From Patescibacteria group bacterium (GTDB lineage Bacteria > Patescibacteriota > JACPGU01): DNA of 64,000 bases. Below are positions 19,778-49,971 of the stretch, in pieces; the stretch's first letter is position 1, and every line of letters begins with the position of its first letter. The stretch is taken from the NCBI GenBank assembly GCA_022703645.1, contig JAKLDG010000001.1, forward strand, positions 573,393-637,392, in the 5' to 3' direction. Made by a program: the position numbers and the translations under genes. The notes beneath the pieces are model-generated. The model had not been told where the DNA came from. It did not search any database and saw nothing but the letters and a program-made list of their open reading frames with translations.

Positions 19778-19784
19778 ATACTCT

Positions 19785-31179: not shown

Positions 31180-31490
31180 CCCCCCTTTTATTTATTACCT
31201 ACATAATACAACAATAGATTTTTTTGGCAATAAAAAAAAGAGGCCGCGAAAAGCTTCTGTAAATCCCTCTGAAATGCCCCACTCAGGTCTTGAACCCCAC
31301 TTAACAGGAGTGTTAAGGCCTTTTCCACTAGGGGTCTTTACAGGGAAAAGGTCGGGGCGTTGTGAGGCAGTATAAACAATGCTTTAACCTGATAATGAGA
31401 CAAATGAGACACTATAAAAAGGGACTGTCTCATGTCTCAAACTTGACTTACTAGAAACATTATAGCATGAGTAAAGGAATTTGATAAGTA

Positions 31491-32057
31491 TTAAAGTTGG
31501 ATAGTAATGCTCTCATCCTCATTTTTAGTCACTTTATGCTCTCTTTTCTTGGGACCAAACAACTCTATGTTTTCTTTGATCATAAAAACATAATAATAAG
31601 GGCTACTTTCTGCGGTAGGCACAATCCTTGCATTTAGTTTGCCTTCCCTAATCATCTTTTTCGCAGTAGCTGTCCTTATTTTAAAATAATGATCAAGCTC
31701 CCACATAGCATACCAACTATCCTTATCTTTGCACGCTTTAGATGGGACTATTTTCTGATCAACTGCTTTTTGGCACAATAAGCACTTAATACCGTTTTTA
31801 TCATACCAACTCGACTCTCCCTCAACATAGGTACCGCAAATACAACAGGAGTATTTGCCACCCTCCATATGGAACCCTTTCGGATTATCTTTTAATTTTA
31901 ATTTACGAAAATGCTCTTTCTTGGCAACATCAAACAAAATCTTATAGAATTCATGCAATCGCCATGATGCGTCAGAAGCCTCTTCCCATGTTAGCTTCTT
32001 GCCATATTCTTTTTCGTAGATTTCTTGAAATTCTTTTATTGCTTCGTCTGATAACAT
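31491..32057 (-). CDS. Hypothetical Cys-containing protein (last gene of candidate defence operon)
   Basis: 188 aa; SCCICG...CLLCQ cysteine pairs; 22 bp downstream of the 801-aa gene. Confidence 0.5.
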   Translation of the reverse strand: MLSDEAIKEFQEIYEKEYGKKLTWEEASDASWRLHEFYKILFDVAKKEHFRKLKLKDNPKGFHMEGGKYSCCICGTYVEGESSWYDKNGIKCLLCQKAVDQKIVPSKACKDKDSWYAMWELDHYFKIRTATAKKMIREGKLNARIVPTAESSPYYYVFMIKENIELFGPKKREHKVTKNEDESITIQL

Positions 32058-32079
32058 AATTTTATGTATTACTTTAAAC

Positions 32080-34485
32080 CTATTCCAAGTTTTGACCCAT
32101 AAGCAACTCCTCTAATTCAGTTTTATTTATTTCAATCTTGTTGCTTATCATTAAATCATCATAAACACAAACCTTTCCACTATCATCTTTTTTAGTTGAA
32201 CAAAATACGGAATACAGCCAATTATAAAATGATCTTTTTGATTTTATATTGCTATTAATAGACTCCTTGTAAGTCTTAAAATGGTTAAATATATCCAAAA
32301 GATTCTTGTTTGAAACGACAACAATCTTAAGCCGCCTATTTTTTGTAAGCTTCTTTGCTATTCCAGCAAAAGATCCATTAGGCTTTTTATTGGAAATGAA
32401 AATAAGACTCTTAAGACCACCCTTACTCTTAACATATTTATTTTTCTTGAAGCTAGAGACATAAATATCATTTTTTTTGAATCCTCCACAAGAAAAAGGC
32501 TTTGAGTAAAATTTAGAGTCCCAAATAAATAGTCCATTCTTAACACCAGGAAATATAGGGAAAGCCGATTTACCATCAGGTACTGCCTTACCGCGCTTAG
32601 TTGTTCCGAGCCAACTAGAAAAGCCAAACATTGATCTTAACAGCACATGGCAATGAGCCTCAAAAAGCTCTGCCCCTAAATTATTGCCTCCTGCATTTTT
32701 GGAACTATAGAATGAGTTATCTCCTATCTTCCTGGAAACCTCATTCGCAAGATTTTCTATTTTTGTAATGCTTTCTCTCTTTATCTCGTTTGATAATAGT
32801 GTAAAAATGTCTTTATTTTCATATTGTATCTTATAAAACAACTTATGTAATTCGATAGCCATAATATTGTAGCTTTTTAGTTTTGATACATCATCTTTTG
32901 AAGTAACAACATGAACATCCGGAAAACGATGAGACAATAGCTCTAATTGATTATTGCTCAATTCTTCAGTAAGGGGTAGTAATAAAATTGTTTTTCCATT
33001 CTTTTCCCCCTCAATAAGATGTATTTTTCTTTTTAATAGCTCCTTTGGGGTATTGCTAATAAGTCTATAACCAAAATCATCGAACTTAGTTTTAATATAT
33101 CTTGCAATGCTTTCTTCGTTAATATTATTGATTATAATTTCTTTATTAGCATAGAGTGGAGACTTGCATATGCCACACAAAGACCCAACATCCTGTGGCT
33201 TACAATAATTAAGACACCCTTTATTAAAACAAAAATAACTTATGAAAAATTCGTCTTTCTCCTTATCAAAAAAGTTTAATTTCTTAAGCAAAGACAATAC
33301 CTCCATCCCTCGCTTATCTCTTATGCTATATGGCGTATATCTTTTTGCTGAATTACATAAAAATGTTTCACAAAAATACTTTTCATTAAGCTCATCATTT
33401 TTCACAAAAGCTCCCATACTTATATCAAAATCTTTTTCAAAATCTTGAAAAACTTTTTGCCTATCAAGCGGATTTAGCTTTCTATCATTAAAATCAAAGA
33501 GTACCGCACCCAATATGCCAGAGTTAGTAAATGATCGTAAAAAAATGGTTAACTTTTTACCCTTTAATTCATTGTGAATCAAATGGATAATTTTTAGATT
33601 AGGAACTTTTATTTTTATTTGCTGAAAAAACTCACTATTAGAAACTCCGAGATCTGTTCGAAACTTTGAAAATTTAGGCATTATAGTAACTTCAAAATCT
33701 CCATTATACGAAGTTAACCCCAAAAGATTAAATGATTCAGATGAACCTGTCTTGATAAATCTTTCAATTTTTTTAAAATCATTTTTGATTTCAACACAAT
33801 CAATATAAGCATTAAAATAACGTGCTAGATGATTTCGAATAATATTTGTCTCTTTCTTGGAATCTGCCGATATTTTAATATCTAGCTTATTGCGTGTTTT
33901 TTTGACTTGTAGAAATTTGTAAATAGGATTGTTTCCCTTCCCACGTCTAAATATGAATACATTCCATCCACGCAACTCGACTCTATCAAGAAACCTATAT
34001 TGATCATTCATGAATCTTGATAACCAGCGTTGTAGATCCTTGGGACGATAACCACTAATGTTATTAATTACTTTCGTATTAGTAGTATATAAATAACCCT
34101 GCCCCTTTCTGTTTAGTTCGCGCAAGTAAACAATCTTTTTAAAGATATTCTCCAAATTTTCATATGATTTGTACCTGAAAGTATTAGAAAGACTTAAAAA
34201 AGAGCTTGGGATATCTTTTTTCTCAAAGAAAATTTGAATAGTTAGTGAGTCGTTTAAGAAAAACTTACAAAAACGGAGCAATTGCAAATCGGGTGCTTTA
34301 TATTTATCGAATATCCTCTTTGTCTTTTCTGCTAACTCATCATCTATGCCCTTAGATAAGAGCCTCCTTTTTAGACCTTGCCAGCTATATTTCTTATACT
34401 CACGATCGTTGGCAAGCAAATAAATACCTGACTTCTTCCAAAAAGAAGACCATTGTTGTTTTGAAATTGAGGACTTAGAACTCAT
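32080..34485 (-). CDS. Large multidomain protein with C-terminal Mrr-type PD-(D/E)xK nuclease-like domain and central Cys cluster
   Basis: 801 aa; C-terminus NLGAELFEAHCHVLLRSMFGFSSWLG...VPDGKSAFPIF...LFIWDSKFYSK (E...D...DxK pattern); CFNKGCLNYC...CGIC; N-terminal ~550 aa unassignable. Confidence 0.6.
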   Translation of the reverse strand: MSSKSSISKQQWSSFWKKSGIYLLANDREYKKYSWQGLKRRLLSKGIDDELAEKTKRIFDKYKAPDLQLLRFCKFFLNDSLTIQIFFEKKDIPSSFLSLSNTFRYKSYENLENIFKKIVYLRELNRKGQGYLYTTNTKVINNISGYRPKDLQRWLSRFMNDQYRFLDRVELRGWNVFIFRRGKGNNPIYKFLQVKKTRNKLDIKISADSKKETNIIRNHLARYFNAYIDCVEIKNDFKKIERFIKTGSSESFNLLGLTSYNGDFEVTIMPKFSKFRTDLGVSNSEFFQQIKIKVPNLKIIHLIHNELKGKKLTIFLRSFTNSGILGAVLFDFNDRKLNPLDRQKVFQDFEKDFDISMGAFVKNDELNEKYFCETFLCNSAKRYTPYSIRDKRGMEVLSLLKKLNFFDKEKDEFFISYFCFNKGCLNYCKPQDVGSLCGICKSPLYANKEIIINNINEESIARYIKTKFDDFGYRLISNTPKELLKRKIHLIEGEKNGKTILLLPLTEELSNNQLELLSHRFPDVHVVTSKDDVSKLKSYNIMAIELHKLFYKIQYENKDIFTLLSNEIKRESITKIENLANEVSRKIGDNSFYSSKNAGGNNLGAELFEAHCHVLLRSMFGFSSWLGTTKRGKAVPDGKSAFPIFPGVKNGLFIWDSKFYSKPFSCGGFKKNDIYVSSFKKNKYVKSKGGLKSLIFISNKKPNGSFAGIAKKLTKNRRLKIVVVSNKNLLDIFNHFKTYKESINSNIKSKRSFYNWLYSVFCSTKKDDSGKVCVYDDLMISNKIEINKTELEELLMGQNLE

Positions 34486-34499
34486 ATTCCTTATTTTAC

Positions 34500-35192
34500 C
34501 TATATTCTAGCTTTTATGTGATTGCCACCATTATCATAATTTAGAGATTCAGCAAGACCGCATGCATTCCATATGAGATCGAAAAGTGGCCTCAAAATAG
34601 TTTCCGGTTTCTCATCGTAAGAATTTATTATAATACCCGGCAGATCCAGATTATCCCTATCAATGGGTGCACCATCATAAGAAGAATACGCTGGACCAGT
34701 GGCCATGCCACAACCACCAACGCCAATAAGAGTTAAAAATATCATCATGGGCATATTTACGCCTAGATCTTTTAGAATTTTCAAATATTCCGTTAAAGAA
34801 TCTATCAATACGTTTTCAAGTGCCAAGCCTTTGATTGTTTTGCCTTCTCTACATGATGCCAAGGACAGACAATCTACTGCCTCTACAATTCCATTCCTAT
34901 AAAGTTGAACATATGAGGCTGTCTTATTGATATCATTCCCGCCACAAGCGAGAACCCCATCTACATTTATTCGACTGATATCGGGTCCTCCATGTATCGG
35001 ACTAATAGATACTGTGCGATCAAATAAAGTGCTCAAATCCAAACTGTACTCATAGTCAAGCGTGCCCAGAGGAATCAAATGTAAAATTATTCTGTTTTCG
35101 TATGATAACGAGACTGGCCTTTCATCTGAAACTATTTTCCGCACCATCTCTTTTTTTATACCGTCTATCTTTTCTATTTCACTTTGCTCCAT
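34500..35192 (-). CDS. Hypothetical protein (operon partner)
   Basis: 230-aa ORF, 14-bp gaps to both neighbours; no family recognised. Confidence 0.5.
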   Translation of the reverse strand: MEQSEIEKIDGIKKEMVRKIVSDERPVSLSYENRIILHLIPLGTLDYEYSLDLSTLFDRTVSISPIHGGPDISRINVDGVLACGGNDINKTASYVQLYRNGIVEAVDCLSLASCREGKTIKGLALENVLIDSLTEYLKILKDLGVNMPMMIFLTLIGVGGCGMATGPAYSSYDGAPIDRDNLDLPGIIINSYDEKPETILRPLFDLIWNACGLAESLNYDNGGNHIKARI

Positions 35193-35206
35193 TTATTTCT
35201 CCATTT

Positions 35207-35434
35207 CTAATTCATTAATTTTCCTATCGCATTAAACCATTCTTGCTCTAATTTTCTTACTTCTTCACGCATTTCTTCCAATTTATTAAGAGATTCAATG
35301 GTTAATACTTTCTCCGGCATTTTTTGTTTCTCGCCTTCCCATGAAATCGCCACAAATTTATCTCTATAATCTGCTAATTCATTTTCCGCTTTGACATATC
35401 GATTTGTAAGGTCATTAAATTCTTCTTGATTCAT
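35207..35434 (-). CDS. Small charged, coiled-coil-like protein (first gene of operon)
   Basis: 75 aa, E/K/R-rich heptad-like sequence; ATG at 35432-35434. Confidence 0.45.
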   Translation of the reverse strand: MNQEEFNDLTNRYVKAENELADYRDKFVAISWEGEKQKMPEKVLTIESLNKLEEMREEVRKLEQEWFNAIGKLMN

Positions 35435-35465
35435 ATTTTTTATTCTTCCTAAAATTAGTTTTATT

Positions 35466-35499
35466 TAAGGGTTGGGATCAATTGACCCCAACCCTTTAT
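35466..35499. terminator. Hairpin, terminator-like (aagggttggg-N-cccaaccctt)
   Basis: Near-perfect inverted repeat 35466-35497 with a T-run on the plus strand; 8 nt beyond the DUF1508 stop. Confidence 0.45.
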
Positions 35500-35506
35500 T
35501 TTTCTC

Positions 35507-35674
35507 CTATGCAACCGGGGCTTTCAGCGCATTGCTCCTAACCCATGCCACTGAGTTGATTGCGCCTTGTTCGCTGTCATATTCTTCGGACCAACAAACA
35601 ATCCTATTATTACCAGCGATTAATCGCCAGTAAAATAGTCCTCGACTACTTTTGCGGATTTCAAATTTTACCAT
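35507..35674 (-). CDS. DUF1508 (YegP-like) small protein, 55 aa; absent from ORF track
   Basis: Own translation MVKFEIRKSSRGLFYWRLIAGNNRIVCWSEEYDSEQGAINSVAWVRSNALKAPVA*; AGAGGTG SD-like sequence 4 nt upstream of the ATG. Confidence 0.6.
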   Translation of the reverse strand: MVKFEIRKSSRGLFYWRLIAGNNRIVCWSEEYDSEQGAINSVAWVRSNALKAPVA

Positions 35675-35838
35675 TTGACACCTCTTAAACTTGCCTTAAT
35701 TAACCACAGAGGATATAATAAATATAACCTCTGTGGCCTGTGGATATTTAAAATATCGACACGGTTTTTACAAGAAACCATTTAAACCACAGATTGGTAT
35801 ATAACTCAAAAAATCAGGCTTGCCTGATTTTTTGTTTC

Positions 35839-36219
35839 CTAAGCAACTTCTTTTTTCTTCAAATTAACGACATACACCTCGCCAACTTCTGGCATATCAT
35901 ACTTTTCCCACTTATAGCGTCCATGAAACTCTTTGGGGTCTATATTGTTGGACCTAAAAAAGCTTCTAGCCACTACACTCCCGCCATAACCTTGCTTACT
36001 ATGTAAAATGCTAAACTTATTTTTTTCTGTTTCACTGTTAGTAAATTGGATTCCTATCGCTTTACTCCCTTCATCCCAAAAAAGCACCACAAATTTTATA
36101 TCTTTTATCCCATTATCAATGTAGAACTTTTGAGGGAACCCTATGCTGTTTGACTTTGTAATAGTGATGCGATCTTCAAGCCTTAAGTTTCTTCCTTCAA
36201 ACTTTTTAAAATTATACAT
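35839..36219 (-). CDS. Hypothetical protein
   Basis: 126-aa ORF; no motif recognised. Confidence 0.45.
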   Translation of the reverse strand: MYNFKKFEGRNLRLEDRITITKSNSIGFPQKFYIDNGIKDIKFVVLFWDEGSKAIGIQFTNSETEKNKFSILHSKQGYGGSVVARSFFRSNNIDPKEFHGRYKWEKYDMPEVGEVYVVNLKKKEVA

Positions 36220-36507
36220 GTTTTTATCGTTATTTAATAATTTTCATAAGTCATTATATCACATATCCCCATAATAGGTCAATAGTATTTTATTATTATC
36301 TACTATTAATATAATATTGCGCTTTATATCATAAAAAACAGCCATACAGACTGTTTTTGTTATTATATAATAGTATATCATTTTTTCTAATTGTCTACCC
36401 TTAACACAATTTTAGCTTTCTCATGTAATATCATAATCATCTTCTGATAACGTTCAATTCCATCATTTGAAAGTTTTTTACCATTGCAACTATTGGGGCA
36501 ATTGTTT

Positions 36508-37599
36508 TTACTTCCCAGATTTTCTACGGTTGTCTTCCTTGCATAGCATCTGACAATTTTTAGAAATTGTTTTTCCGCCTTCATGCCAGGGTTTTATATG
36601 ATCTGCTTCCATTTCTCCTATTTCAAAATGTTTCTTGCATTTTACGCATTTGCCTTTTTGCTTTTCATATGCTTCTCTTTTTTGTTTGTCCGTAAAAGCC
36701 CGGATATTTAAATATCTTTCATTTCTTGTTAAGACATACGGATAAACCCCGGATTTTTTGGTCACATCTTCATCTTGCATCAATTTGACAATTTCCTTTT
36801 CCATTTTTTTGGAATCAAACTTTTCATCTTTAAATTCATTGTACAGTTCTCCCCACTCCACACTACTCATCTCTCTACGATAATTCGTAAATGTTACCCG
36901 CACCCATGCAATCACTTCTTGAAAATACTCCCACAACTTGTCGGCATTCGCATCGTGCTGGTGTTTTGCCATATAATCTTCTATCTTGCCTTTGTTAATC
37001 CATGAGAGCGCGGTTTCTAAATACTCTTGGCGAATCGGCGAACCACCAACTAATTGCCCGCCGTCATTTGCCAGAAGATATGCCGCACAATGTGTTTTGC
37101 TAAACTTTAGTTTTGCATCAGAAAGCCATGGACCAGTATAGACAGCGTTGCGCAATTCTTGGTCATATAGCTTTTCTCCAGCGATGTTAATGATTCTAAA
37201 CCAGTCCAACCGTTCTTTGTCTGTGCCCTCGCAGAAATAAATCATCAATTCATAATCCAAAATCTGATTTTGTTCTTCGTCGGTCAAGTTATGAAAAAAG
37301 CGATCATTGAGTGAAAAGTCTCCGTTTATATATTGTCCTACGCTAATAGTGCGCTGTTGGCCATCCAAAACTTCAAAATTTCCCTGATCTGTCTTAACCC
37401 AGTACATCACGTTAAGTGGAAAACCATTTTTGATTGTTTCAATCACGGCGTCCCGTTGCTTGCCGTTATAAACAAATTCGCGTTGATATTTCGGACGAAT
37501 ATCAAGTTTGCCATCGTAAGCAACTACGCCTTCTTCGGCACTATCTTTATATCCGATAATTACTTTCCTTATTGGAATTCGATGTAATTCAATTTTCAT
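36508..37599 (-). CDS. DUF262 (ParB-like/GmrS-type) domain fused to HNH endonuclease
   Basis: YQREFVYNGKQRD and LDGQQRT; C-terminal CVKCKKHF...EADHIKPWHEGGKTISKNCQMLC. Confidence 0.78.
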   Translation of the reverse strand: MKIELHRIPIRKVIIGYKDSAEEGVVAYDGKLDIRPKYQREFVYNGKQRDAVIETIKNGFPLNVMYWVKTDQGNFEVLDGQQRTISVGQYINGDFSLNDRFFHNLTDEEQNQILDYELMIYFCEGTDKERLDWFRIINIAGEKLYDQELRNAVYTGPWLSDAKLKFSKTHCAAYLLANDGGQLVGGSPIRQEYLETALSWINKGKIEDYMAKHQHDANADKLWEYFQEVIAWVRVTFTNYRREMSSVEWGELYNEFKDEKFDSKKMEKEIVKLMQDEDVTKKSGVYPYVLTRNERYLNIRAFTDKQKREAYEKQKGKCVKCKKHFEIGEMEADHIKPWHEGGKTISKNCQMLCKEDNRRKSGK

Positions 37600-37600
37600 A

Positions 37601-38644
37601 TTATTTTTTTACTTTCTTATTTTTAATAATAACTCGCGCATAAGGAACATCAACAATCCCATCTGTCATCATATATAAATCACCGTCAACAGCGCCTCTT
37701 TTTTGAATTTCTTTTCTATATTTTTTATGTTCTTCTTTATATGGTTTGACACCAATTTCTATCCCTGAGTTAGATATGCCTAAACCAATTATTTCAAATT
37801 GTTCCGGATTATATTTATCGAGGAAAGTAATTGGTACGCCTATGGCACCATTATAGTCCATTGGAATTTCAGAATTTTTATCAACATTGATAGCGTCGTA
37901 ATTCTCATATTTTGGATACTCCTCAGGTGTGTATTTTTTGTAAAGAGTAATCTCTTGCTTATGTTTTTCAACCTCAAGATTTGTAAACCAACACGAAGTT
38001 GAAACTCTCGCAATTTTCTTGCCATTATTATCAATATGATGAAAAAGCTCCCAATCGTCTGGCACAATAAAAAACATGCCAACATTAAAGTTTGTATAAC
38101 CAGTACGAAGTTTGTTATCTTTAATAAGTTTAAACACTTCCTTATAGGTCATAGCGTTAGTATTACCAATAATCAAAAACTTTTTATCGTATTCGATAAG
38201 TTGTGATAGATATTCACGAAATAACGAAAACGGAGGATTGGTCACGACAATATCGGCTTCTTTTAGCAGTTTGATACACTCCTCGCTGCGAAAATCGCCA
38301 TCGCTTATCATTTCAGTTATAAACTCTTCCGGGTCGGGCATGCGATTGCCGTTTTTGTCTCCGGCGTATTCCAATTTATAAGGCGGTTCGTGAGTAAATA
38401 AATTTGCTTCTTTGTAATGCGTTGCAATTAATTTTTTCATACCAAGTTCTTCGAACTTCATGCTGAAATACTTAACAAAATTGCTTTCTTTTGGGTCATC
38501 GCAATTGCAAAATACCACTTTGCCACGAAATTGGTCTTTGTAGTGTTTTAGCTCATTTTCAATATCGGCGAGCTGAGTATAAAACTCATCTTTCTTCGCA
38601 GCGCTTGCCTTGTGTAAGTTTTTATTTGAAGATTTATTTTCCAT
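37601..38644 (-). CDS. N6-adenine-type DNA methyltransferase (amino-MTase, NPPF motif)
   Basis: DEFYT near N-terminus, VVTNPPF motif IV; 1 bp from the downstream gene, 9 bp from the upstream gene. Confidence 0.78.
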   Translation of the reverse strand: MENKSSNKNLHKASAAKKDEFYTQLADIENELKHYKDQFRGKVVFCNCDDPKESNFVKYFSMKFEELGMKKLIATHYKEANLFTHEPPYKLEYAGDKNGNRMPDPEEFITEMISDGDFRSEECIKLLKEADIVVTNPPFSLFREYLSQLIEYDKKFLIIGNTNAMTYKEVFKLIKDNKLRTGYTNFNVGMFFIVPDDWELFHHIDNNGKKIARVSTSCWFTNLEVEKHKQEITLYKKYTPEEYPKYENYDAINVDKNSEIPMDYNGAIGVPITFLDKYNPEQFEIIGLGISNSGIEIGVKPYKEEHKKYRKEIQKRGAVDGDLYMMTDGIVDVPYARVIIKNKKVKK

Positions 38645-38653
38645 ATAATATTT

Positions 38654-39124
38654 TTATAAGTTTAGAAAATCCCAACGATTTAAATACTTTTCATCTGGAT
38701 CATCAAATTTTCTCATTATAGTATCCTTATGTTTTTGTCCATTTTTTCCAGGTGTATCTAACCAATGTGAATGTCCTTTTTTGCAATATTTTGCCACAAC
38801 TTCACTTGGCACAATAAAAAACTCAGGATATTCTTTGCGTTTATTCAAATTAACAAAAATATAGAAAAAATTATTTGAGAAATAATCCTCTGCTTTTTGA
38901 TTTAGAATCCAACTCCTAGTTGGACTACTGCTTGCCTTTACTTGAATATTTACTGATTTACTGGCTTCAGAGTTTGAACATAGAATATCGATTCCTCTGG
39001 TGTTTCTCAAAATGATTGACGCGATATAACCTCTCTTCGATAATTCCGCGGCAACAAAATATTCTCCAGCTACACCAGTTAAAACAGACCCGATTTTTTC
39101 AGTTTCATTCTTAATGACTGGCAT
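38654..39124 (-). CDS. Small PD-(D/E)xK-like endonuclease-fold protein (putative)
   Basis: GEYFVAAELSKRGY...GIDIL...NIQVK spacing; 156 aa. Confidence 0.45.
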   Translation of the reverse strand: MPVIKNETEKIGSVLTGVAGEYFVAAELSKRGYIASIILRNTRGIDILCSNSEASKSVNIQVKASSSPTRSWILNQKAEDYFSNNFFYIFVNLNKRKEYPEFFIVPSEVVAKYCKKGHSHWLDTPGKNGQKHKDTIMRKFDDPDEKYLNRWDFLNL

Positions 39125-39169
39125 AAAATTAAGTTAATTTTATTTCTTCTATTTTACCATAAAAAATAC

Positions 39170-39210
39170 CTAAAAACAATTGAAAGAGGAGCTATACGAG
39201 CCCCTCTTTC
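39170..39210 (-). terminator. Rho-independent terminator after membrane-protein gene
   Basis: Minus-strand GAAAGAGGGGCUCGUAUAGCUCCUCUUUC followed by AAUUGUUUUUAGG. Confidence 0.6.
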
Positions 39211-39227
39211 AACAGTGAATACTAATT

Positions 39228-39884
39228 CTAGTTATAAGCGTCTATTTTCTTATCACCATCATTATCATAGAAACACATCGTGGTTTTACCGTGATAACAC
39301 CATTGCCACTGAGTGCCACTTCCATAATTTGAAGGCTTAGCAGAATCAGGCTCTCTACCAGCAGACGCCACTAGCATTTCATAAGTCATTCCAATCCAAA
39401 CATTTTGCTTTGCAACATCTTCACATATCTTCTTGGTCCAATCAGGATGTGCTGATTTGCATTTCTGCCCTTCTGGTGTAGCCTCATATGCTTTTTCTTC
39501 TGCTGCCAATTTTTCAAAAGCTTCTGCGGCCATATTAACTGCATCATAATCTAGTTCATCTTTATTTTGCTGAACTAAAGACGGCTTATTGAGACTCGAA
39601 GCTATATTATTAAATATAAGAAAGTTTAAGAAAAAGATGACAGCGAATACTGGCAAGATCGCTACAGCATTTATTACGGTTTTCTTTTTCTTGGAAAAAC
39701 CTTTTCTTGACCATAACCACCAAACAAGTAACCCCGTTATATAAACAGGTAAACCAAATAGCGGAACTGCCAAAAAATCGATATTAACTAACAACCCCAG
39801 TATAATCATCAGGGCAAATAAACCCGCGCCTGAAACAGCTATTATTTTACCCTTCCCCCACTTTTTAATTTCTTCTTGAGACAT
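39228..39884 (-). CDS. Membrane protein (3 N-terminal TM segments, Cys-containing C-terminal domain)
   Basis: 218 aa; hydrophobic N-terminal third. Confidence 0.55.
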   Translation of the reverse strand: MSQEEIKKWGKGKIIAVSGAGLFALMIILGLLVNIDFLAVPLFGLPVYITGLLVWWLWSRKGFSKKKKTVINAVAILPVFAVIFFLNFLIFNNIASSLNKPSLVQQNKDELDYDAVNMAAEAFEKLAAEEKAYEATPEGQKCKSAHPDWTKKICEDVAKQNVWIGMTYEMLVASAGREPDSAKPSNYGSGTQWQWCYHGKTTMCFYDNDGDKKIDAYN

Positions 39885-40065
39885 AAAACCTCCTTCTAAT
39901 TAAAATAACCACAAGAAAAACTTGTGGTATTTGATAATATTATTTCTAAATTTTATATTACATTTTTGTAACATGGTTCTTGGTCGGTTTTTATAATTTT
40001 TGGTGAAAAACACAAAGCTCCCCACCAGCGATCTCTTGCGAGACCCACACCCCTTTCGGGGCATG

Positions 40066-40118
40066 ACCGACCAAGGTGCTCTGATGGAGAGCTTTCTACC
40101 TTGGTCGGGTTTTATACC
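40066..40118 (+). other. Nested stem-loop (12-bp stem accgaccaaggt/accttggtcggg plus inner gctc-tgatgga-gagc) followed by T-run
   Basis: Read directly; 18-nt motif cttggtcggtttttata also occurs at 39979-39995. Confidence 0.4.
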
Positions 40119-40256
40119 ATATCCTACAGATATACTGCAGGGGTTAGGTAACTAAATTGTTAGTCCTATCTTAGCAGATAAAACACTCAAAGTAAAGCGT
40201 TATTGAGCTGGTCTTTTAACGCCTTTTATGCCATAATTTAAGAAATAAATATCATT

Positions 40257-40823
40257 ATGAAGAAAAAGACTATAAATAAAAATATAGAACCAGTATCCTT
40301 TCCCAAGCTTTTTGAATGGGGTTCGAGAAAGTCGAACAAACCTGTAATTTTGGATTATCTTAGTAAGCATACGGAAGTTAATATGATGAAATCATTAATG
40401 CCAAAGGGATTAGTAACACATGGAAATATGGCATCACAAATCAAGCTTAATCTACCAGATCGAAACATGGCAGATATTATAATAGATGGGATCGCAGCAA
40501 AGCTCAACGCTTCTGGAGACAAAATTGTTCTATATATCAATTCAAGTGGTGACTTGTATCAAAAAGGAGATCAAGAACATAAACACTCTTTCAAATTATC
40601 ATCTCTAAGATTTCAGATATTAAGAATTTTAAAAGATTCTTTTGTAAAGCCGGAATATATTAGACACGAAACCGATAGTGTAAGTGTAGGATCCGTCAGA
40701 AAAGCAGTTAATGAGATTAACAGCCAAGTGAAAATAAAGCTTGGCATTGAAAACAACATAATTGAGGGTAAAGGCGGTAGCGGATACAGGATTAATCCAA
40801 AATATAAACTAGAATTTATCTAA
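40257..40823 (+). CDS. Hypothetical protein (first gene of phage-derived module)
   Basis: 188-aa ORF; no SD; no family recognised. Confidence 0.45.
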   Translation: MKKKTINKNIEPVSFPKLFEWGSRKSNKPVILDYLSKHTEVNMMKSLMPKGLVTHGNMASQIKLNLPDRNMADIIIDGIAAKLNASGDKIVLYINSSGDLYQKGDQEHKHSFKLSSLRFQILRILKDSFVKPEYIRHETDSVSVGSVRKAVNEINSQVKIKLGIENNIIEGKGGSGYRINPKYKLEFI

Positions 40824-40968
40824 AGACAAAATGTCCTCGTAAGTGGAGTGGATAATGTTTATAGAAAATGGTCATTAAGGCCATTTTTTGTTTTGGAAAA
40901 CTCCATGTAGAGGTCGCTCCCAAAAAAATATAATGATTCCAAGTAATAACTAAACGGAAAGGAATCTT

Positions 40969-42342
40969 ATGTCAAAAGAAAAAATGACAAAGACAAGCGA
41001 CCTTAGGGTCGAACAGGTTGCAATCAGCAACCTAAAGCCCAGCGACTATAACCCGAGACGCTGGACAACCGATGCTATCAAGCAATTGCGAGACAGCATC
41101 GAGAGATTCGGATTAGTGGATCCCATAATATGTAACATTGCTCCAGGTCGAGAGCAGATTGTTATTGGGGGTCACTTCAGATTGAAGGTGGCGAAGGATC
41201 TGGGATTTAAAGAAGTCCCAGTTGTGTATCTTAATATCCCAGACATCGAGAAAGAGAAAGAGTTGAATATTCGCTTGAATAAAAATTTAGGCGAATTCGA
41301 TTTCGATTTGCTCAAAAGTTTCGGTGAGGATTTTCTATCGAATATAGGATTCTCATCCGAAGACCTCGATAGGATTTTTGAAGTTGAAGATACACCTGGG
41401 GTCTTCGATTTGGAAAAAGAATTGAAAAAGTTGGATATCAAAAACATTGAAATCCAAAAAGGAGATCTTTGGGATCTTGATGGAAGCAGAATGTACTGTG
41501 GTGACTCCACCATCGAAGAAGATGTGCTGGCACTAATGGGAAATGAAAAGGCCGACATGGTCATGACGGATCCTCCATATCTACTAAATTATCTTGTAGG
41601 CAAGAAAAAACACGGTCAAGCAACAGAAGGATTCGGATATAAAAGAGATCGCAAATATCTTGAAACAGACTTCTTACCCGAAGACTTCACAGAAAAATGG
41701 ATGGCCAATGTTAATAAAGTTCAAAAGGATGACTTTCATATTATCGTGTATGAAAACTGGAAGAACATTAGGACTATATGGGGCGAAATGGAAAAGTATT
41801 GGAAGGTCAAAAATATGATTGTGTGGCATTTGCCCAACCGTGTTCAGAACTTCTCATCAAAATATAAGTTGTTCAATAAGCATGACATAGCCATGGTTGG
41901 CACAGCCAAAGACTTGGAATTTAATTTTGAGCAAGAGAACAAGGAATTGCAAAACGAATATGATACTGCGCTTTATGCTATAGCCGGGAAGCCAGCGTGG
42001 GAGTCATATGAAAAAGGTAAAAAATATTGTCCTACCGACTTTATAGAATTCAACGCCGCCGATGAAAAAAGTTCTGGCCAAGGAATTATATTCGGCACCA
42101 AGCCAATCGAGATTCTAATTCCGTATATAAAAGTATTAACCAAAAGAGATGATTTAGTCCTAGAACCCTTCGGCGGTAGTGGTAGTACTTTAATAGCGGC
42201 AACAAAACTGAAACGCCGTTGTTTCCTTATGGAAAAATCGCCTGTCTACGCGGAAGTGATTAGAAAAAGGTGGGAAAACCTTACAGGCCTGAAAGCTGTG
42301 CTGATTTCCAAAAAGGAGGTGAAAGATGATAAAGCAGGATAA
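40969..42342 (+). CDS. ParB-like nuclease domain fused to DNA methyltransferase (beta-class amino-MTase)
   Basis: N-terminal ISNLKPSDYNPRR; MVMTDPPY motif IV before LEPFGGSGSTLIAA motif I; SD GGAAAGGAA upstream. Confidence 0.82.
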   Translation: MSKEKMTKTSDLRVEQVAISNLKPSDYNPRRWTTDAIKQLRDSIERFGLVDPIICNIAPGREQIVIGGHFRLKVAKDLGFKEVPVVYLNIPDIEKEKELNIRLNKNLGEFDFDLLKSFGEDFLSNIGFSSEDLDRIFEVEDTPGVFDLEKELKKLDIKNIEIQKGDLWDLDGSRMYCGDSTIEEDVLALMGNEKADMVMTDPPYLLNYLVGKKKHGQATEGFGYKRDRKYLETDFLPEDFTEKWMANVNKVQKDDFHIIVYENWKNIRTIWGEMEKYWKVKNMIVWHLPNRVQNFSSKYKLFNKHDIAMVGTAKDLEFNFEQENKELQNEYDTALYAIAGKPAWESYEKGKKYCPTDFIEFNAADEKSSGQGIIFGTKPIEILIPYIKVLTKRDDLVLEPFGGSGSTLIAATKLKRRCFLMEKSPVYAEVIRKRWENLTGLKAVLISKKEVKDDKAG

Positions 42343-42739
42343 GGTTCAGAAGGCATTACTAGAACAATTGGTTAAAATGCCAATTGTTCAGGTAGCAGTA
42401 GATAAGACCAGAATAAGCCGAGCTACATTCTACAGAATGATTAAGAAAAATAAGAAGTTCAAAGAAGATGTAGATAAGGCAATTGAACAAGGCAGGCTAC
42501 TTATAAATGATATGGCCGAGGTACAAATAATCTCGGCAATCAAGGACCGCAACATAACCAGCCTAATTTACTGGCTCAACCATAATCATCCAGTATACCG
42601 AACGAAGATCGAAATCGAAGCCAATCACAAGATGATTGATGGAAAAATAAGTAAAGAACAAGAATTATTAATTAAAAAAGCGATAGAACTAATATCGCCT
42701 AATCTACAGGAGGTTCAAGATGAACAAAATAACAAATAG
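42326..42739 (+). CDS. Putative terminase small subunit / HTH DNA-binding protein
   Basis: 137 aa with VAVDKTRISRATFYRMI HTH-like segment; overlaps both neighbours (17 and 20 nt); AGGAGGTG SD. Confidence 0.45.
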   Translation: MIKQDKVQKALLEQLVKMPIVQVAVDKTRISRATFYRMIKKNKKFKEDVDKAIEQGRLLINDMAEVQIISAIKDRNITSLIYWLNHNHPVYRTKIEIEANHKMIDGKISKEQELLIKKAIELISPNLQEVQDEQNNK

Positions 42740-44183
42740 TCAAAATCAAGATTTACCTATTGAGGTAATCGAAAGCGTCATTAACGATCAAAAGCTCAGG
42801 ACAAATCTCACCAAAAGAAATCCGCTATGGTTCTTTGGGCTTTACTTCTCGCACTATATCACTTTCCCAATTGCTGATTTCCAGAGAGAGATATTTCAGA
42901 TCATGAGTGATGAGAGTCAAAAGCAGGTCGTAATCACAGCTTTTCGTGGAAGCGCAAAATCTACATTAATTACCCTGTGCTATGCTCTTTGGAGTATTAT
43001 GGGGTCGCAAAACAAGAAATTTATAGTGATCATTAGTCAAACCCAAGAGTTAGCAAAACAACATCTGAAAAATATTAAACGAGAACTTGAGGAAAATGAT
43101 CTATTAAAGGCGGATCTTGGCCCATTTCAAGAGGAAAATGAATGGGGTTCTGGAGCAATAGTATTGCCAAAATACAATGCAAAAATAATGGTGGCTTCAA
43201 CAGAGCAAAGTATCCGTGGTATCAAACATGGACCATACAGACCGGATATCATAATCGCAGACGATGTAGAGGATGTAAATTCTACTAAGACGTCGGATAG
43301 CCGGAACAAAACTTATGAATGGTACAATAGTGAAATTGTGCCACTGGGAGACATTGGCACAAGAATTATCGTTGTAGGAAACCTACTTCACGAAGATTCT
43401 TTAGTAATGAGATTAATAAATGAGATGGAAGATGGCCAGCGAACTGGAATCTTTAGAAAATACCCCATCATGGATAATGGAGATAATATATTGTGGCCAG
43501 GAAAATACCCAGATCTAAACGCAATCGAAACTGAAAAACTAAAAGTTGGCGATAAATTCTCATTTGCAAGAGAATATATGTTAAGCATTGTAGATCGCAG
43601 AGAAGCTATCGTAGTCAGAGAAAACATCCACTATTATAAGGAAGTTCCTCCAAAGGGTCATGGAGATTACAATGTAATTAGCACCGATCTAGCCGTATCG
43701 CTAAAAGAGTCTGCGGATTATACTGCAATAATTTCTGCCAAGATAATTGGGCAAGGAAAAGACAGAAAGATATATATTCTCGAAAATCCTGTAAACGAAA
43801 GACTGGATTTCTCGCAAGCTACGGATATGGTCAAGGCAACCATTAGCAGTCTTGGAAATATATTTGAAACCGAAGTCTATGTTGAAAATGTAGGAGCTCA
43901 AGATTACTTTGCTCAACATCTTGGCGAACAGTCGTATCTAGTTAAAAGCCTAAAGGTTGGAAATATGGATAAAAGAGGCAGATTGTATGTTTCCCATAAA
44001 TGGATAAGCTCCGGCAGAGTCCTCTTCCCAGAACATGGTGCTGAAAAACTTATTGAACAGATATTGGGATTCGGAGTTGAAAAACATGATGATTTAGTAG
44101 ATGCCTTCACGCTATTGGTGATGAATACCATAGAGAAAACCTTCGAATATGAAGGGAAAACGATCGGGCTTTTACGATTCTAG
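42720..44183 (+). CDS. Phage terminase large subunit
   Basis: Walker-A-like AFRGSAKST, acidic IIIADDVED, C-terminal nuclease-like region; AGGAGG SD. Confidence 0.8.
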   Translation: MNKITNSQNQDLPIEVIESVINDQKLRTNLTKRNPLWFFGLYFSHYITFPIADFQREIFQIMSDESQKQVVITAFRGSAKSTLITLCYALWSIMGSQNKKFIVIISQTQELAKQHLKNIKRELEENDLLKADLGPFQEENEWGSGAIVLPKYNAKIMVASTEQSIRGIKHGPYRPDIIIADDVEDVNSTKTSDSRNKTYEWYNSEIVPLGDIGTRIIVVGNLLHEDSLVMRLINEMEDGQRTGIFRKYPIMDNGDNILWPGKYPDLNAIETEKLKVGDKFSFAREYMLSIVDRREAIVVRENIHYYKEVPPKGHGDYNVISTDLAVSLKESADYTAIISAKIIGQGKDRKIYILENPVNERLDFSQATDMVKATISSLGNIFETEVYVENVGAQDYFAQHLGEQSYLVKSLKVGNMDKRGRLYVSHKWISSGRVLFPEHGAEKLIEQILGFGVEKHDDLVDAFTLLVMNTIEKTFEYEGKTIGLLRF

Positions 44184-44329
44184 ATTGCTGGACTTTAATA
44201 GTGGTTTGTAGTCTTATTAAAGACTTAGTTATCTACAGCTTTAAGTCTGGACTTGAAAGGACGCTTGCGGTACCCTCCCCTTTGCCTGGTAGAGATATCG
44301 GGAAATATAAATAAAGGGAAAGGAGAAAA

Positions 44330-45721
44330 ATGCCAAAAACAAGCGTCCTTGATTGCCCTCCTACTATATATGGCAATCGGAACAAGGAGGTAGCTGAAAT
44401 ACCAATCAGATACTGCCTCTATGCTAGAAAATCAACTGAACAGGACGAATTACAAGCCCTGTCAATTGATTCTCAGATCCACGAGATGAAAACACTGGCT
44501 GAAAGAGAAAATCTGGAAGTGGTAGAGATTAGAAAAGAATCCCATTCGGCGAAGGAATCGGGACAACGACCAGTGTTCAACAAAATACTAACCGACCTGC
44601 GGGAAGGAATGTTTAATGGGATTCTCACATGGGCTCCTGATAGATTGAGTAGAAATGCTGGGGACTTAGGATCATTAGTAGATCTGATGGATCGGGATGT
44701 ATTAGTAAAGATAAGGACACCTAATCAATTCTTCACTAATTCTCCAAATGAGAAATTCATGCTAATGATCCTATGTTCTCAAGCCAAGTTGGAAAATGAT
44801 AATAAAAGCTTGAATGTAAAGCGAGGTCTAAAAGCTAAATGCCAAATGGGATATAGACCGGGGGTCACTCCCCTAGGATACCTAAATGAACCCACTGGGA
44901 TAAAGGGACAAAGAAAAGTGACGATTGATCCAAGTAGAGCACCAACAGTTAAAAAGATGTTTGAAAAAGTTGGGTATGAAAGAGCTAGTGGCAGAGAAAT
45001 ATATAGATGGCTGGTATATGATCAGGACTTCAAAACCAAATCTGGAAAGCGAGTAACATTGAGCAACATCTTCCGAATGCTTCATACACCATTCTATTAT
45101 GGAGACTTTGAATATCCGCAAGGATCCAATACTTGGTATAAAGGAAATCATGAACCAATAATAACAAAGGAACTTTATGAAACGGTTCAAGAGAATCTCA
45201 AAGTAGATCCGAAAATTAAATATGGAATCAAGGACTTCCAATTCACAAAGCTGGTATTCTGCGGAACATGCGGAGCGATGATCACGGCTGAAGAAAAGTT
45301 CAAGAAACTGCTCGATGGCGGTGTGAGAAGGCATGTCTACTACAGGTGCGTAAAGAGAGTAGATGTTGATTGCCAAGAACCACCAATAAAAGAAGAAGAA
45401 TTATTAGAACAAATGATTCAGCTAATGGATAAAATAGATTTTTATAAAAAAGGAACCTTCGACAAGATTCAGCAGGAAGTTGAAAGGTATAACAAATTCT
45501 CCCAAGTAGTATTCGGCAAAGGCAACCAAGACAAACAAATCAAAGTCAAAAAGACCGATATCAAATCCTACGCCGCCTACATCCTCCGCGAGGGTGGTAG
45601 AGAAGAAAAACGAGAACTGCTGATGAATCTGCGAACGAAACTATATATAAAAGATAGTAAGATATTTATCAAAGAGAATGAGGTAGTAGAAAACCCAGAT
45701 CAAGCAACACAAAATGAATGA
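44330..45721 (+). CDS. Large serine recombinase (integrase/resolvase family)
   Basis: YARKSTEQDE (catalytic Ser), APDRLSRN, C-terminal Cys zinc ribbon (CGTCGAM...CVKRVDVDC); AGGAG SD. Confidence 0.85.
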   Translation: MPKTSVLDCPPTIYGNRNKEVAEIPIRYCLYARKSTEQDELQALSIDSQIHEMKTLAERENLEVVEIRKESHSAKESGQRPVFNKILTDLREGMFNGILTWAPDRLSRNAGDLGSLVDLMDRDVLVKIRTPNQFFTNSPNEKFMLMILCSQAKLENDNKSLNVKRGLKAKCQMGYRPGVTPLGYLNEPTGIKGQRKVTIDPSRAPTVKKMFEKVGYERASGREIYRWLVYDQDFKTKSGKRVTLSNIFRMLHTPFYYGDFEYPQGSNTWYKGNHEPIITKELYETVQENLKVDPKIKYGIKDFQFTKLVFCGTCGAMITAEEKFKKLLDGGVRRHVYYRCVKRVDVDCQEPPIKEEELLEQMIQLMDKIDFYKKGTFDKIQQEVERYNKFSQVVFGKGNQDKQIKVKKTDIKSYAAYILREGGREEKRELLMNLRTKLYIKDSKIFIKENEVVENPDQATQNE

Positions 45722-45776
45722 TAATTAGCTGAGCTATGGGCATAATACATATTATCACCTTGGCGAATTTATTTAC

Positions 45777-45831
45777 TTGACATGTATTTATCCACTTTGA
45801 TATACTATAACTAACTTACCGAGCGGTAAGT
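45777..45831 (+). promoter_or_regulatory. Sigma70-like promoter (TTGACA, 18 nt, TATACT) plus 18-bp perfect palindromic operator ACTTACCG-AG-CGGTAAGT
   Basis: -35 at 45777-45782, -10 at 45801-45806, palindrome 45814-45831, 24 nt before the TetR start. Confidence 0.6.
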
Positions 45832-45854
45832 AAATAAAAGTAATTTATAGAATT

Positions 45855-46442: not shown

Positions 46443-46514
46443 TGGTCGAGGGTTGATCCACCATAAGGATTTTATGGATTAATTAAATTAAATAAATATA
46501 AAAGGAGTATACCA

Positions 46515-46643
46515 ATGAGTTTTCTATCAAACATAAATTGGTCAAGCCCAACAACTATCGTGATTGAGGTGGCAATAGTTGTGGTTATAGCTGCTGCTGG
46601 TTATCTGATTTGGGCTTGGAAATCAAAACAGTGGCCATTTTAG
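46515..46643 (+). CDS. Small single-TM peptide, 42 aa; absent from ORF track
   Basis: AAAGGAG SD 5 nt before the ATG; MSFLSNINWSSPTTIVIEVAIVVVIAAAGYLIWAWKSKQWPF*. Confidence 0.4.
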   Translation: MSFLSNINWSSPTTIVIEVAIVVVIAAAGYLIWAWKSKQWPF

Positions 46644-46748
46644 TCAAATAGTATTTGGGGCGCTCAATTACCTAGATATCTTAAATAAAAATAACATTGA
46701 GCGCCCTATAATATTTTACTCAAGTGAAATGATAATTAAAAAATAAAT

Positions 46749-48360: not shown

Positions 48361-48365
48361 TAAAT

Positions 48366-49211: not shown

Positions 49212-49232
49212 AGTTAAAAGTAAAAACCAAAA

Positions 49233-49748: not shown

Positions 49749-49786
49749 ACCCATACACTTAGAACAATAACAAAACAGATTCGATC

Positions 49787-49969: not shown

Positions 49970-49971
49970 AT

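Follow-up and report, generated by a model that had tools for sequence, protein, structure and literature searches.

Tycheposons of Prochlorococcus are tRNA-associated, cargo-swapping islands of streamlined genomes; they mostly rely on tyrosine recombinases and possess replication genes, a minority use a large serine recombinase (LSR), and a PICI-like subset has a TerS or capsid gene, these PICI-like forms being reported without cargo (Hackl et al., bioRxiv 10.1101/2020.12.28.424599). A similar tRNA association and cargo swapping in a streamlined genome is seen in the island described here. The ssrA-specific genomic islands of Dehalococcoides (DsiB; McMurdie et al., 2011, PMC3146451) offer a second parallel: a CcrB-like LSR lies at the target-proximal end, the recombinase C-terminus is variable at the junction, and a conserved integration module is combined with cargo carriage without transfer genes of their own.

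We analyzed a stretch of 64,000 nt from a Patescibacteria (CPR) bacterium, hereafter the window. To our knowledge, the routes of HGT in this phylum, whose genomes are tiny, are poorly characterized. We regard it as likely that the block at ~31.2–49.9 kb of the window is an integrative genomic island in the slot between DUF1385 and tRNA-Leu(UAG), and a member of an LSR family. It is probably a phage-mobilized, satellite-like LSR island at tRNA-Leu with defense cargo aboard.

Gene content of the island

The features of the island are as follows:

31180–31275, no strand: left junction interval, following the DUF1385 start codon (31179) and enclosing the left copy of a 9-mer (31202–31210); X begins at ~31276
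31276–31471, plus: X, non-coding terminal region conserved in the island family (nhmmer and alignments)
31491–32057, minus: Zn-ribbon protein, 188 aa, semi-conserved gene of the X-proximal end (homologs in related loci)
32080–34485, minus: predicted FokI/Nt.BspD6I-like (type IIS-like) nuclease with Zn ribbon, 801 aa (AF2 model and Foldseek)
34500–36219, minus: small cargo ORFs without assigned function (ORF list)
34500–35192, minus: cargo ORF, 230 aa (ORF list)
35207–35434, minus: cargo ORF, 75 aa (ORF list)
35507–35674, minus: cargo ORF, 55-aa DUF1508 (precomputed Pfam on an identical contig)
35839–36219, minus: cargo ORF, 126 aa (ORF list)
36508–38644, minus: type II restriction-modification (R-M) pair (Pfam, PADLOC)
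36508–37599, minus: DUF262/GmrSD_N+HNH endonuclease (PADLOC REase_II, 2.5e-137)
37601–38644, minus: EcoRI-family adenine methylase (PADLOC MTase_II, 3.1e-114)
38654–39884, minus: 156-aa protein (phrog_29029, function not assigned) and 218-aa membrane protein, downstream of LOOT (PHROGs)
40030–40150, minus: LOOT RNA (Rfam RF03000; 96.6 bits against a gathering score of 46.4, model positions 1–121)
40257–45721, plus: core operon of five genes (Pfam, PHROG, NCBIfam)
40257–40823, plus: first core gene, 188-aa protein without assigned function
40969–42342, plus: ParB_N-N6/N4 DNA methylase (Pfam/PHROG/NCBIfam)
42326–42739, plus: TerS (Pfam/PHROG/NCBIfam)
42720–44183, plus: TerL (phrog_38, 5e-80)
44330–45721, plus: LSR, Resolvase+Recombinase+Zn-ribbon (PF00239, 4.3e-22; PF07508, 3.9e-14; PF13408, 5e-6)
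45722–49782, plus: TetR regulator, membrane protein, GT2 glycosyltransferase, patatin-like phospholipase and GNAT, putative variable cargo (Pfam)
45855–46442, plus: TetR regulator (Pfam)
49783–49886, no strand: terminator and ~70-nt spacer beside the tRNA (94–100% identical to the relative L011)
49887–49970, minus: tRNA-Leu(UAG), 3′ end facing the island (ARAGORN and Rfam)

Matches in Pfam, PADLOC, PHROGs and NCBIfam confirmed the contents that a first-pass annotation had assigned to the block (nuclease, methylases, HNH, terminases, and serine recombinase), and its left flank, formed by trxA (29805–30122) and DUF1385 (30211–31179), was likewise verified. The recombinase is of the large serine type, with an intact catalytic motif and R33/K34/S35 invariant in 30 homologs; Pfam revealed no second serine recombinase in the island. 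The reading of the block as an integrated mobile element driven by this enzyme and bearing defense cargo is supported.

The cargo of the window copy comprises the type II R-M pair, the predicted FokI-like nuclease, small uncharacterized proteins, and, in all likelihood, the TetR-controlled envelope operon. The endonuclease and methylase genes of the R-M pair are adjacent; the same pair is also found as cargo in three related loci (L036, L050, and L062), as well as elsewhere in the genome of the relative L007. The 801-aa protein has no sequence match in Pfam or PDB and belongs to a rare family, with only 41 representatives in 1.84 billion proteins; its invariant residues are E609, D637, D656, and K658 together with C419/C424/C437/C440. 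Its AF2 model (pLDDT 87, pTM 0.78) matched Nt.BspD6I (8e-4) and FokI (1.1e-3) in a Foldseek search of the PDB, and we predict a FokI/Nt.BspD6I-like nuclease. The small ORFs at 34500–36219 gave no family matches in Pfam, PHROGs, PADLOC, or NCBIfam, the DUF1508 assignment from precomputed Pfam aside. Homologs of the 218-aa membrane protein follow LOOT in L085 and lie downstream of TerL in L099. The Zn-ribbon protein lacks a Pfam, PHROG, or NCBIfam match; 10 other loci encode homologs, which in five cases (L050, L076, L079, L095, and L096) are immediate neighbors of X. The defense inventory amounts to one certified system (R-M), one candidate FokI-like nuclease, and the orphan-type methylase of the core, the remaining ORFs being without matches.

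Neither PHROGs nor Pfam identified portal, capsid, tail, or lysis genes in the island, which sets it apart from a prophage; the same PHROGs search does detect portal, capsid, and adaptor genes beside the nearest true-phage TerLs. With its LSR, TerS, and TerL, but no structural genes, the island has an integrase and packaging genes without a complete virion module, as do PICI-like phage satellites. No primase, helicase, or replicase domain was found in the window island with Pfam and PHROGs, and no replication module, excisionase/RDF, or helper phage was identified for it.

Probable boundaries at DUF1385 and tRNA-Leu

Distant relatives pair tRNA-Leu(UAG) with DUF1385: in L008 and L009 the two are separated by ~90 nt, and in L007 by a malic enzyme gene alone. 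In L011, whose LSR is 96% identical to that of the window at the amino acid level, the LSR stop codon lies ~120 nt from the same tRNA-Leu and the TetR operon is missing. The variable slot would therefore span 31180–49886 (18.7 kb), and the element is most likely ~18.7 kb long, reaching tRNA-Leu (49887). The TetR/envelope operon had been taken for a housekeeping flank, which does not hold, as it is missing here both in the close relative L011 and in the distant relatives L007, L008, and L009. The edges first proposed (31200–45750) are accordingly retained on the left, where ~31.2 kb agrees with the family-conserved region X, but not on the right, where the comparisons place the end at tRNA-Leu rather than at 45.75 kb.

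Homology between L011 and the window ends at 45682 and restarts at ~49786; the terminator and spacer of L011, located directly after the LSR gene, are 94–100% identical to window positions 49786–49919. Four elements at tRNA-Gln have an LSR-to-tRNA spacer that is 77–95% identical across hosts, while the DNA past the tRNA is unalignable, and on these alignments the spacer is shown to travel with the element. We consider 49783–49886 probably to be the right terminal segment, and tRNA-Leu(UAG) the probable integration target. The TetR operon would then be internal cargo between the LSR gene and the terminal spacer, as suggested by one pairwise comparison (L011) and by the family-level argument for an element-borne spacer. 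A Gln-type terminal spacer was not detected beside the tRNA in gapped loci, and the window/L011 pair is therefore the one case in which cargo is shown to lie within the spacer. The same TetR pattern would result from an independent insertion, or from a deletion in L011.

Two separate events could also account for this arrangement: an LSR island at ~31.2–45.7 kb and a TetR-GNAT module that either was inserted on its own exactly between the recombinase gene and the terminal spacer or is ancestral and was deleted in L011. Comparison with L011 reveals a clean indel that takes in the last 13 LSR codons, and modules are mosaic, TerL being 57% and LSR 96% identical between the window and L011. However, we found no recombinase or repeats belonging to the TetR-GNAT module itself, and this scenario, which we consider unlikely, is hardly distinct from internal cargo: the module has element-type sequence on both sides and would therefore be excised with the island.

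We hold it to be quite unlikely, and already disfavored, that the element is the 14.5-kb LSR element of the first-pass annotation, bounded by the 9-bp repeat CATAATACA (31202 and 45741) between housekeeping DUF1385 and TetR. Some LSR att cores are as long as 9 bp, and the word is indeed present at both edges, exactly at 31202–31210 and 45741–45749 and nowhere else in the window. Yet when the two junction intervals are compared for shared direct words of at least 9 nt, such a word turns up in 20% of dinucleotide shuffles, and random pairs of window segments give one in 24% of cases; we rejected CATAATACA as an edge repeat or att core as being at chance level. Its left copy overlaps the −10 box of a promoter-like sequence for DUF1385 (TTGCCA-16-TATTAT, minus strand, 31230 to 31203). 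Sequence conservation with L011 does end at the 3′ end of the LSR gene, as does the gene order in common with contig P0008, and the LSR C-terminal tails diverge past ...IFIKE(D/N)E, which is what a gene bordering a junction would show. Against such a boundary, L011 keeps the terminator and spacer beyond the gene while lacking the TetR operon between LSR and tRNA-Leu, the neighbor of DUF1385 in relatives is tRNA-Leu and not TetR, elements of the family end at a tRNA, often with cargo between it and the LSR, and the interval 45722–45854 shows no similarity to any related locus.

For the preferred 18.7-kb element, the left end would fall somewhere within 31180–31275. An intact tRNA-Leu(UAG) stands at one end with its 3′ end toward the island, as in islands of the Islander type; a displaced tRNA 3′ fragment at the other end is absent from the window copy but present in two relatives, L066 (17 nt) and L053 (16–20 nt), where the repeats lie just outside X and stop at the T-loop. 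L012 was rejected as an example of a clean direct repeat, since the tRNA-Asn on its left is an entire gene, group I intron included, and tRNA-Asn occurs three times at this locus. A tRNA-Leu fragment was sought with blastn-short and Smith-Waterman, and no significant one emerged at 31180–31300 or anywhere in 31–49.8 kb, the best alignments at the left end being matched by 12% of random segments and 187/300 shuffles. The imperfect repeat 31310–31352/49816–49850 was discarded as well (69/500 shuffles), and no other significant repeat marking the left end was found in the window.

In GC and tetranucleotide composition, neither the island nor its core nor the TetR operon departs from the host null distribution, and the composition profile suggested as a check proved uninformative. 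No empty site was seen in a close relative: among the contigs listed, all those with identical DUF1385 or trxA (seven for trxA) carry the island, a DUF1385 scan of genome contigs gave nothing, and the metagenome scan returned the same genome only. Where the slot is empty or almost so, the relatives concerned have a DUF1385 that is just 47–48% identical. An exact search of IMG/VR for the right-end spacer, as a sign of a circle junction, gave no match.

A cassette conserved across CPR bacteria

The LSR family comprises at least 8000 90%-clusters (E<1e-30) and at least 591 matches in GTDB species representatives. We surveyed 80 loci from species-representative genomes and, in addition, IMG/VR contigs; in the 80 loci, we detected upstream of the LSR gene ParB-MTase in 46, TerS in 40, and TerL in 29. 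A relative with an 85%-identical LSR has the same five-gene core, joined there to R-M cargo of type I between unrelated flanks. This gene order recurs in L011, in 27 to 38 of the 60 GTDB loci having at least 6 kb upstream, and in the 55 IMG/VR loci whose TerL reaches an identity of 38% or more (L099–L153). These IMG/VR loci were found by an alignment-based search, a single-protein scan of IMG/VR with TerL having given no match, and all contigs above this identity carry the cassette. Portal or capsid genes never accompany it in the surveyed loci; the true phages that come nearest (TerL 33%) have their genes for portal, protease/major capsid, and adaptor immediately behind TerL. Any further gene family is common to at most 14 of 91 loci. 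Variable cargo across the family includes type I, II, and IIG R-M, AbiV, and copper resistance; relatives carry, among others, an S24 repressor, type I and IIG R-M, and CopA. The first tRNA downstream of the LSR gene is convergent in 49/49 loci, and in equal amounts of DNA we counted 84 tRNAs downstream and six upstream.

These comparisons indicate that ParB-MTase/TerS/TerL/LSR is a CPR-wide conserved cassette. The statement that the block "has become a defense island" understates its content, the core being a conserved cassette in hundreds of CPR genomes and not prophage debris. A decayed, immobile prophage remnant, with terminase, methylase, and recombinase genes as leftovers, would be in line with the absence of structural, lysis, and replication genes and of a flanking repeat in the window copy, with the presence of the island in every sampled genome of the species and with its host-like composition, but is very improbable, since more than 100 loci spread across CPR classes show the same terminase-only layout, their ORFs being full-length and their Walker/nuclease residues invariant; related copies occupy different tRNAs and have different surroundings, and close relatives exchange modules.

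Two non-coding components accompany the cassette. Region X gave an nhmmer match of 3.8e-12 with L012/L013, other matches being weaker. Its blocks resemble GGTCTAGAACC and CTCGGGTCGGGG, then ATGAGACAAATGAGACACTATAAAAAGG and GTCTCA, and it contains a 17-mer (31395–31411) which, with up to two mismatches, has 25 matches in 20 of 91 sequences, every one on the LSR strand; in related loci, 24/24 lie upstream of the LSR gene, against ~0.2 expected by chance. A promoter-like sequence lies on the minus strand of X (31440 to 31411). X has no match in Rfam, and the idea of a tRNA-like or otherwise structured RNA was dropped, as RNAalifold consensus pairs were absent on both strands.

The LOOT RNA of the window matches its motif (RF03000) over the full length and is transcribed away from the core operon. 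With a covariance model built in this analysis, LOOT was found in 34 of 88 sources, making it a frequent component of the island family; ~27 of 36 matches flank the LSR gene or sit just upstream of the ParB-MTase operon, pointing away. Rfam lists the motif only as an sRNA, and the close linkage to an LSR island family shown here would give this orphan RNA its first genomic context. The searchable literature yielded no work linking either LOOT RNA or CPR bacteria with LSR islands, and we found no published description of a very widespread family uniting LSR, packaging genes, methylase, LOOT, and swappable defense cargo.

Proposed mobilization and known counterparts

We propose that the LSR inserts the element into the T-loop region, in the 3′ part of a tRNA gene, the recombinase gene being tRNA-proximal, and would also excise it. 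Closely upstream, on the LSR strand, lies a cassette, probably of phage origin, of ParB-domain DNA methylase, TerS, and TerL, without capsid, portal, or tail genes, with X at the far end, LOOT often pointing out of the core, and variable cargo both before and after the recombinase gene. The island's own terminase may package it, in a satellite-like manner, into capsids of an undiscovered helper phage; the methylase could protect the transferred DNA, and the cargo would defend the host, paying for the island's upkeep. Under self-packaging, LOOT could be, e.g., a packaging, antitermination, or regulatory RNA, and X could hold, e.g., recombination-directionality or promoter sites.

It is possible, and we suggest it tentatively, that CPR bacteria phylum-wide host a hitherto undescribed class of self-packaging integrative elements, i.e., tRNA T-loop LSR islands with a complete terminase and no capsid genes, which spread via hijacked capsids of undiscovered CPR phages, employ LOOT and X as functional parts, and serve as a main vehicle for defense and metal-resistance genes in these minimal genomes. 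If one island architecture, present in hundreds of species representatives, carries genes for R-M, Abi, and copper resistance from one tRNA site to another, it would account for a major share of the accessory-genome dynamics of CPR bacteria. The family would also provide a large set of natural LSRs with targets seemingly centered on tRNA T-arms, which is relevant to recombinase engineering, and the role of a complete terminase in a capsid-less element is a testable question. For the window, the outcome is a revised boundary and a new interpretation of its "flank."

Among known systems, SCCmec/Ccr elements are likewise site-specific islands with cargo and without transfer genes, and the window LSR finds its best NCBIfam match in CcrB (7.6e-36; 124 bits, far below the cut-off of 900). 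They differ in their target, which is rlmH in SCCmec and a tRNA here, and in the CcrA partner, which is missing from the window island. The same CcrB match, far below cut-off, and T-loop repeat ends confined to L066 and L053 describe how far the likeness to Dehalococcoides ssrA islands extends; in contrast to the latter, the window family targets many ordinary tRNAs and not ssrA, no small DsiA/CcrA-like partner recombinase was seen in the window island, the family core has TerS and TerL, the ParB-methylase, LOOT RNA, and X, and the host phylum is Patescibacteria.

We know of no definition of the four named satellite families (PICI, cfPICI, PLE, and P4-like) by LSR, TerS, TerL, and ParB-methylase without a capsid gene. 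What the window family shares with phage satellites (de Sousa et al., 2023, PMC10085698) is the pairing of an integrase with packaging gene(s) in the absence of a full virion module, defense cargo, and, in some relatives, an S24/CI-like repressor. Compared with tycheposons, the family is distinguished by a universal LSR, by both terminase subunits, by a replication module not being found, and by cargo as the usual condition.

Gene content and proposed edges of the island

The island in the window is real and the LSR (large serine recombinase) island is an ordinary concept, yet the boundaries proposed in the first-pass annotation (31200-45750) need revision, with the TetR operon inside the variable slot. 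Its gene list was borne out by ORF calls and profile searches, with the restriction-modification (R-M) pair recognized by PADLOC. The window comes from a genome of Patescibacteria (CPR), and identical sequence is found on JGI 3300009776 Ga0116154_10000029, ERZ795054 NODE-8 and GCA_035454225.1.

Features of the island and its flanks (window positions)
Left flank: TIM, Zn-ribbon protein, trxA and DUF1385
31491-39884, minus: arm with a 188-aa Zn-ribbon protein, several small ORFs, a DUF262/GmrSD_N+HNH endonuclease with an EcoRI-type methylase (PADLOC type II R-M pair), a phrog_29029 protein, a 218-aa membrane protein and the following gene
32080-34485, minus: 801-aa protein
40030-40150, minus: full-length LOOT RNA (RF03000, 96.6 bits), between both arms
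40257-45721, plus: one operon of a 188-aa protein, ParB_N-N6/N4 methylase, small terminase (TerS), T7-type large terminase (TerL) and LSR
45855-49748, right of LSR: TetR, membrane protein, GT2, patatin-like protein, GNAT
49887-49970, minus: tRNA-Leu(UAG)
Beyond tRNA-Leu(UAG): ComEA, then an RsmD-like methyltransferase

The left edge proposed earlier agrees with region X, a conserved non-coding stretch that marks the end of the islands opposite to the LSR (31276-31471 in the window). The 9-mer CATAATACA, noted at both proposed edges, occurs only at 31202 and 45741, but this does not exceed chance: a shared word of at least 9 nt is expected in 20-24% of trials with two such AT-rich intervals. 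Its left copy overlaps a promoter-like -10 box of DUF1385. Composition, offered as a check, sets no part of the block apart from the host.

Elsewhere in the window, a giant gene (product of 2888 aa) extends from about 53830 onward on the plus strand, encodes Big_9, Cadherin_4 and Cadherin_5 repeats (precomputed Pfam, identical contig) and is preceded by a Cache-domain sensor gene. The 23S rRNA match (12031-15233, minus) measures 3203 nt against a 2925-nt model; the roughly 280 extra bases could be an insertion or intron like those reported in rRNA genes of Patescibacteria (CPR).

The variable slot in related genomes

In distant relatives (DUF1385 47-48% identical) the order RsmD-ComEA-tRNA-Leu(UAG)-DUF1385-trxA-Zn-TIM-FBA-PfkB is kept; no gene separates tRNA-Leu(UAG) from DUF1385 in L008 and L009, and in L007 a malic enzyme gene alone stands between them. 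Thus, the variable slot of the window is 31180-49886, TetR operon included. In the close relative L011, the LSR (96% identity), ParB-methylase (89%) and TerS (77%) are accompanied by a TerL only 57% identical to that of the window, which indicates that the modules are mosaic. The alignment with L011 ends at 45682, 39 nt short of the LSR stop, and after 54 unrelated bases resumes at about 49786 with the terminator, a spacer of about 70 nt and the tRNA-Leu 3' end (94-100% identity). L011 lacks the TetR operon, its LSR lying about 120 nt from tRNA-Leu. By analogy, we infer that the island begins with X at about 31.2 kb and reaches the 3' region of tRNA-Leu, and that the TetR operon would be cargo placed between the LSR and the terminal spacer of the element, the alternative being loss of this operon from L011. 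An 85%-identical LSR accompanies a core with the same gene lengths (217, 188, 457, 137, 487 and 464 aa), on a contig with type I R-M cargo to the left and unrelated genes to the right. For the window island, searches found no repeat of tRNA-Leu at its left end and no circle junction, and no close relative showed an empty site.

A recombinase-terminase family beside tRNA genes

LSR homologues, most of them Patescibacteria proteins of 55-60% identity, form at least 8000 90%-clusters (E<1e-30), with at least 591 matches among GTDB species representatives. Upstream of the LSR and on its strand, the 80 fetched loci encode ParB-methylase (46), TerS (40) and TerL (29), the TerL end being at most 350 nt ahead of the LSR start in 13 of 28 loci; any further gene family is common to at most 14 of those fetched. 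No portal- or capsid-like gene was found among the recurring gene clusters examined (4-14, 17, 18). In IMG/VR, each of the 55 loci whose TerL reaches 38% identity has the cassette; the nearest true phages (TerL 33%) carry portal, protease/major capsid and adaptor genes immediately after TerL. The family is apparently a large, undescribed variant of the LSR island; a literature search found no account of it in CPR or of its LOOT association, which is absence of evidence only.

In 49/49 loci, the first tRNA 3' of the LSR is encoded on the strand opposite to it, and tRNAs total 84 downstream vs 6 upstream. Eight loci have this first tRNA 105-246 nt from the LSR, and the remaining 41 have it at 0.8-9.2 kb (4.2 kb in the window). 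Copies of the downstream tRNA 3' end lie just outside X in L066 (17 nt) and L053 (16-20 nt), both stopping exactly at the T-loop. When four tRNA-Gln elements are compared, identity across the LSR and the spacer that follows it is 74-95% as far as the tRNA, and the DNA beyond is unalignable; therefore, the spacer is part of the element.

In L029, L042, L060, L106, L109-L111, L115 and L153, two full-length TerL paralogues stand in tandem between TerS and LSR and share 44-46% identity with the TerL of the window. The 26-kb IMG/VR contig L097/L151 (IMGVR_UViG_3300020195_001307) has a 9117-nt repeat period, its unit comprising X, two unknown genes, ParB-methylase, a second methylase, TerS, a short TerL, a PfkB-like kinase, an RNR-like protein and a NUDIX protein, without LSR. 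This contig could represent a concatemeric or circular relative, or else a tandem duplication. The L012 island has tRNA-Asn copies on both sides (3025-3332, 11616-11692 and 11784-11850, all minus), the anticodon of the left one being split by a 225-nt group I intron (RF00028, 89.4 bits). A 45-nt motif with GGTCGATTTACAC is repeated beside two of these copies, and this 13-mer also occurs in the window spacer (49862-49874).

LOOT RNA, cargo and a possible route of transfer

The orphan motif LOOT (RF03000) is a component of this family, present in 34/88 sources (in addition to the window copy: L004, L016, L017, L020, L027, L028, L031, L034, L036, L038, L043, L045, L048, L050, L053-L057, L061, L068, L070-L072, L074, L076, L079, L080, L084, L085, L091-L094). 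About 27 of 36 copies occupy one of two placements flanking the core and pointing away from it: on the LSR strand, 40-180 nt downstream of the gene, or on the other strand, 150-1100 nt upstream of the LSR or ParB-methylase operon. In the window, L085, L020 and L092, LOOT is followed by a gene for a small membrane protein. The SRR5007146 Logan contigs L001 and L010 both stop in the apical loop of the long LOOT hairpin, overlapping by only 11 nt (40079-40089), which could reflect an assembly break at the hairpin or population heterogeneity.

Region X is present also in L012 (3394-3657) and 18 further loci. Its invariant block, the 17-mer ATGAGACAAATGAGACA, gave 25 matches (at most 2 mismatches) in 20/91 sequences, every one on the LSR strand, and in related loci lies upstream of the LSR in 24/24 cases vs about 0.2 expected by chance. 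X matches nothing in Rfam, neither strand yields a consensus RNA fold, and the region holds a minus-strand promoter-like site, TTGAGA-18-TATAGT.

Cargo, found both upstream and downstream of the LSR, includes S24 (LexA/CI-like) repressors, type I, II and IIG R-M systems, AbiV and CopA/CcdA/DsbA copper genes. The family of the 801-aa protein is rare, with 41 representatives in a set of 1.84 billion proteins; its E...PD...DxK motif is invariant, and a Zn ribbon is present. The 801-aa protein has no sequence match in Pfam or PDB; its confident AF2 model (pLDDT 87) has Nt.BspD6I and FokI as top PDB matches, with a PD-(D/E)XK domain of this kind at the C-terminus, and we read it as a candidate type IIS-like nuclease. 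Together with the R-M pair, this candidate lends partial support to the defence role suggested earlier. L007 carries GmrSD_N, EcoRI-methylase, DUF6602 and GmrSD_N+HNH genes at another locus (17074-21110) near the same glycolytic operon, the endonuclease and methylase being 68% and 60% identical to those of the window; the R-M module therefore moves independently of the LSR core.

The LSR is intact, tRNA polarity holds family-wide, repeats end at the T-loop in two relatives, the full-length terminase-only cassette is conserved and the cargo is exchangeable. In the proposed mechanism, the LSR would integrate the island at the tRNA T-arm, the island's own TerS and TerL would package it into capsids of a helper phage as the route of transfer, and the ParB-methylase would shield the transferred DNA. 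No replication gene, recombination directionality factor or helper phage was identified. The closest known relatives of the CPR islands are the Dehalococcoides ssrA islands (PMC3146451): an LSR with a variable C-terminus is common to both, and the T-loop insertion and repeat of about 20 bp in Dehalococcoides have their counterpart in the repeat ends of L066 and L053; tycheposons and phage satellites are also similar.
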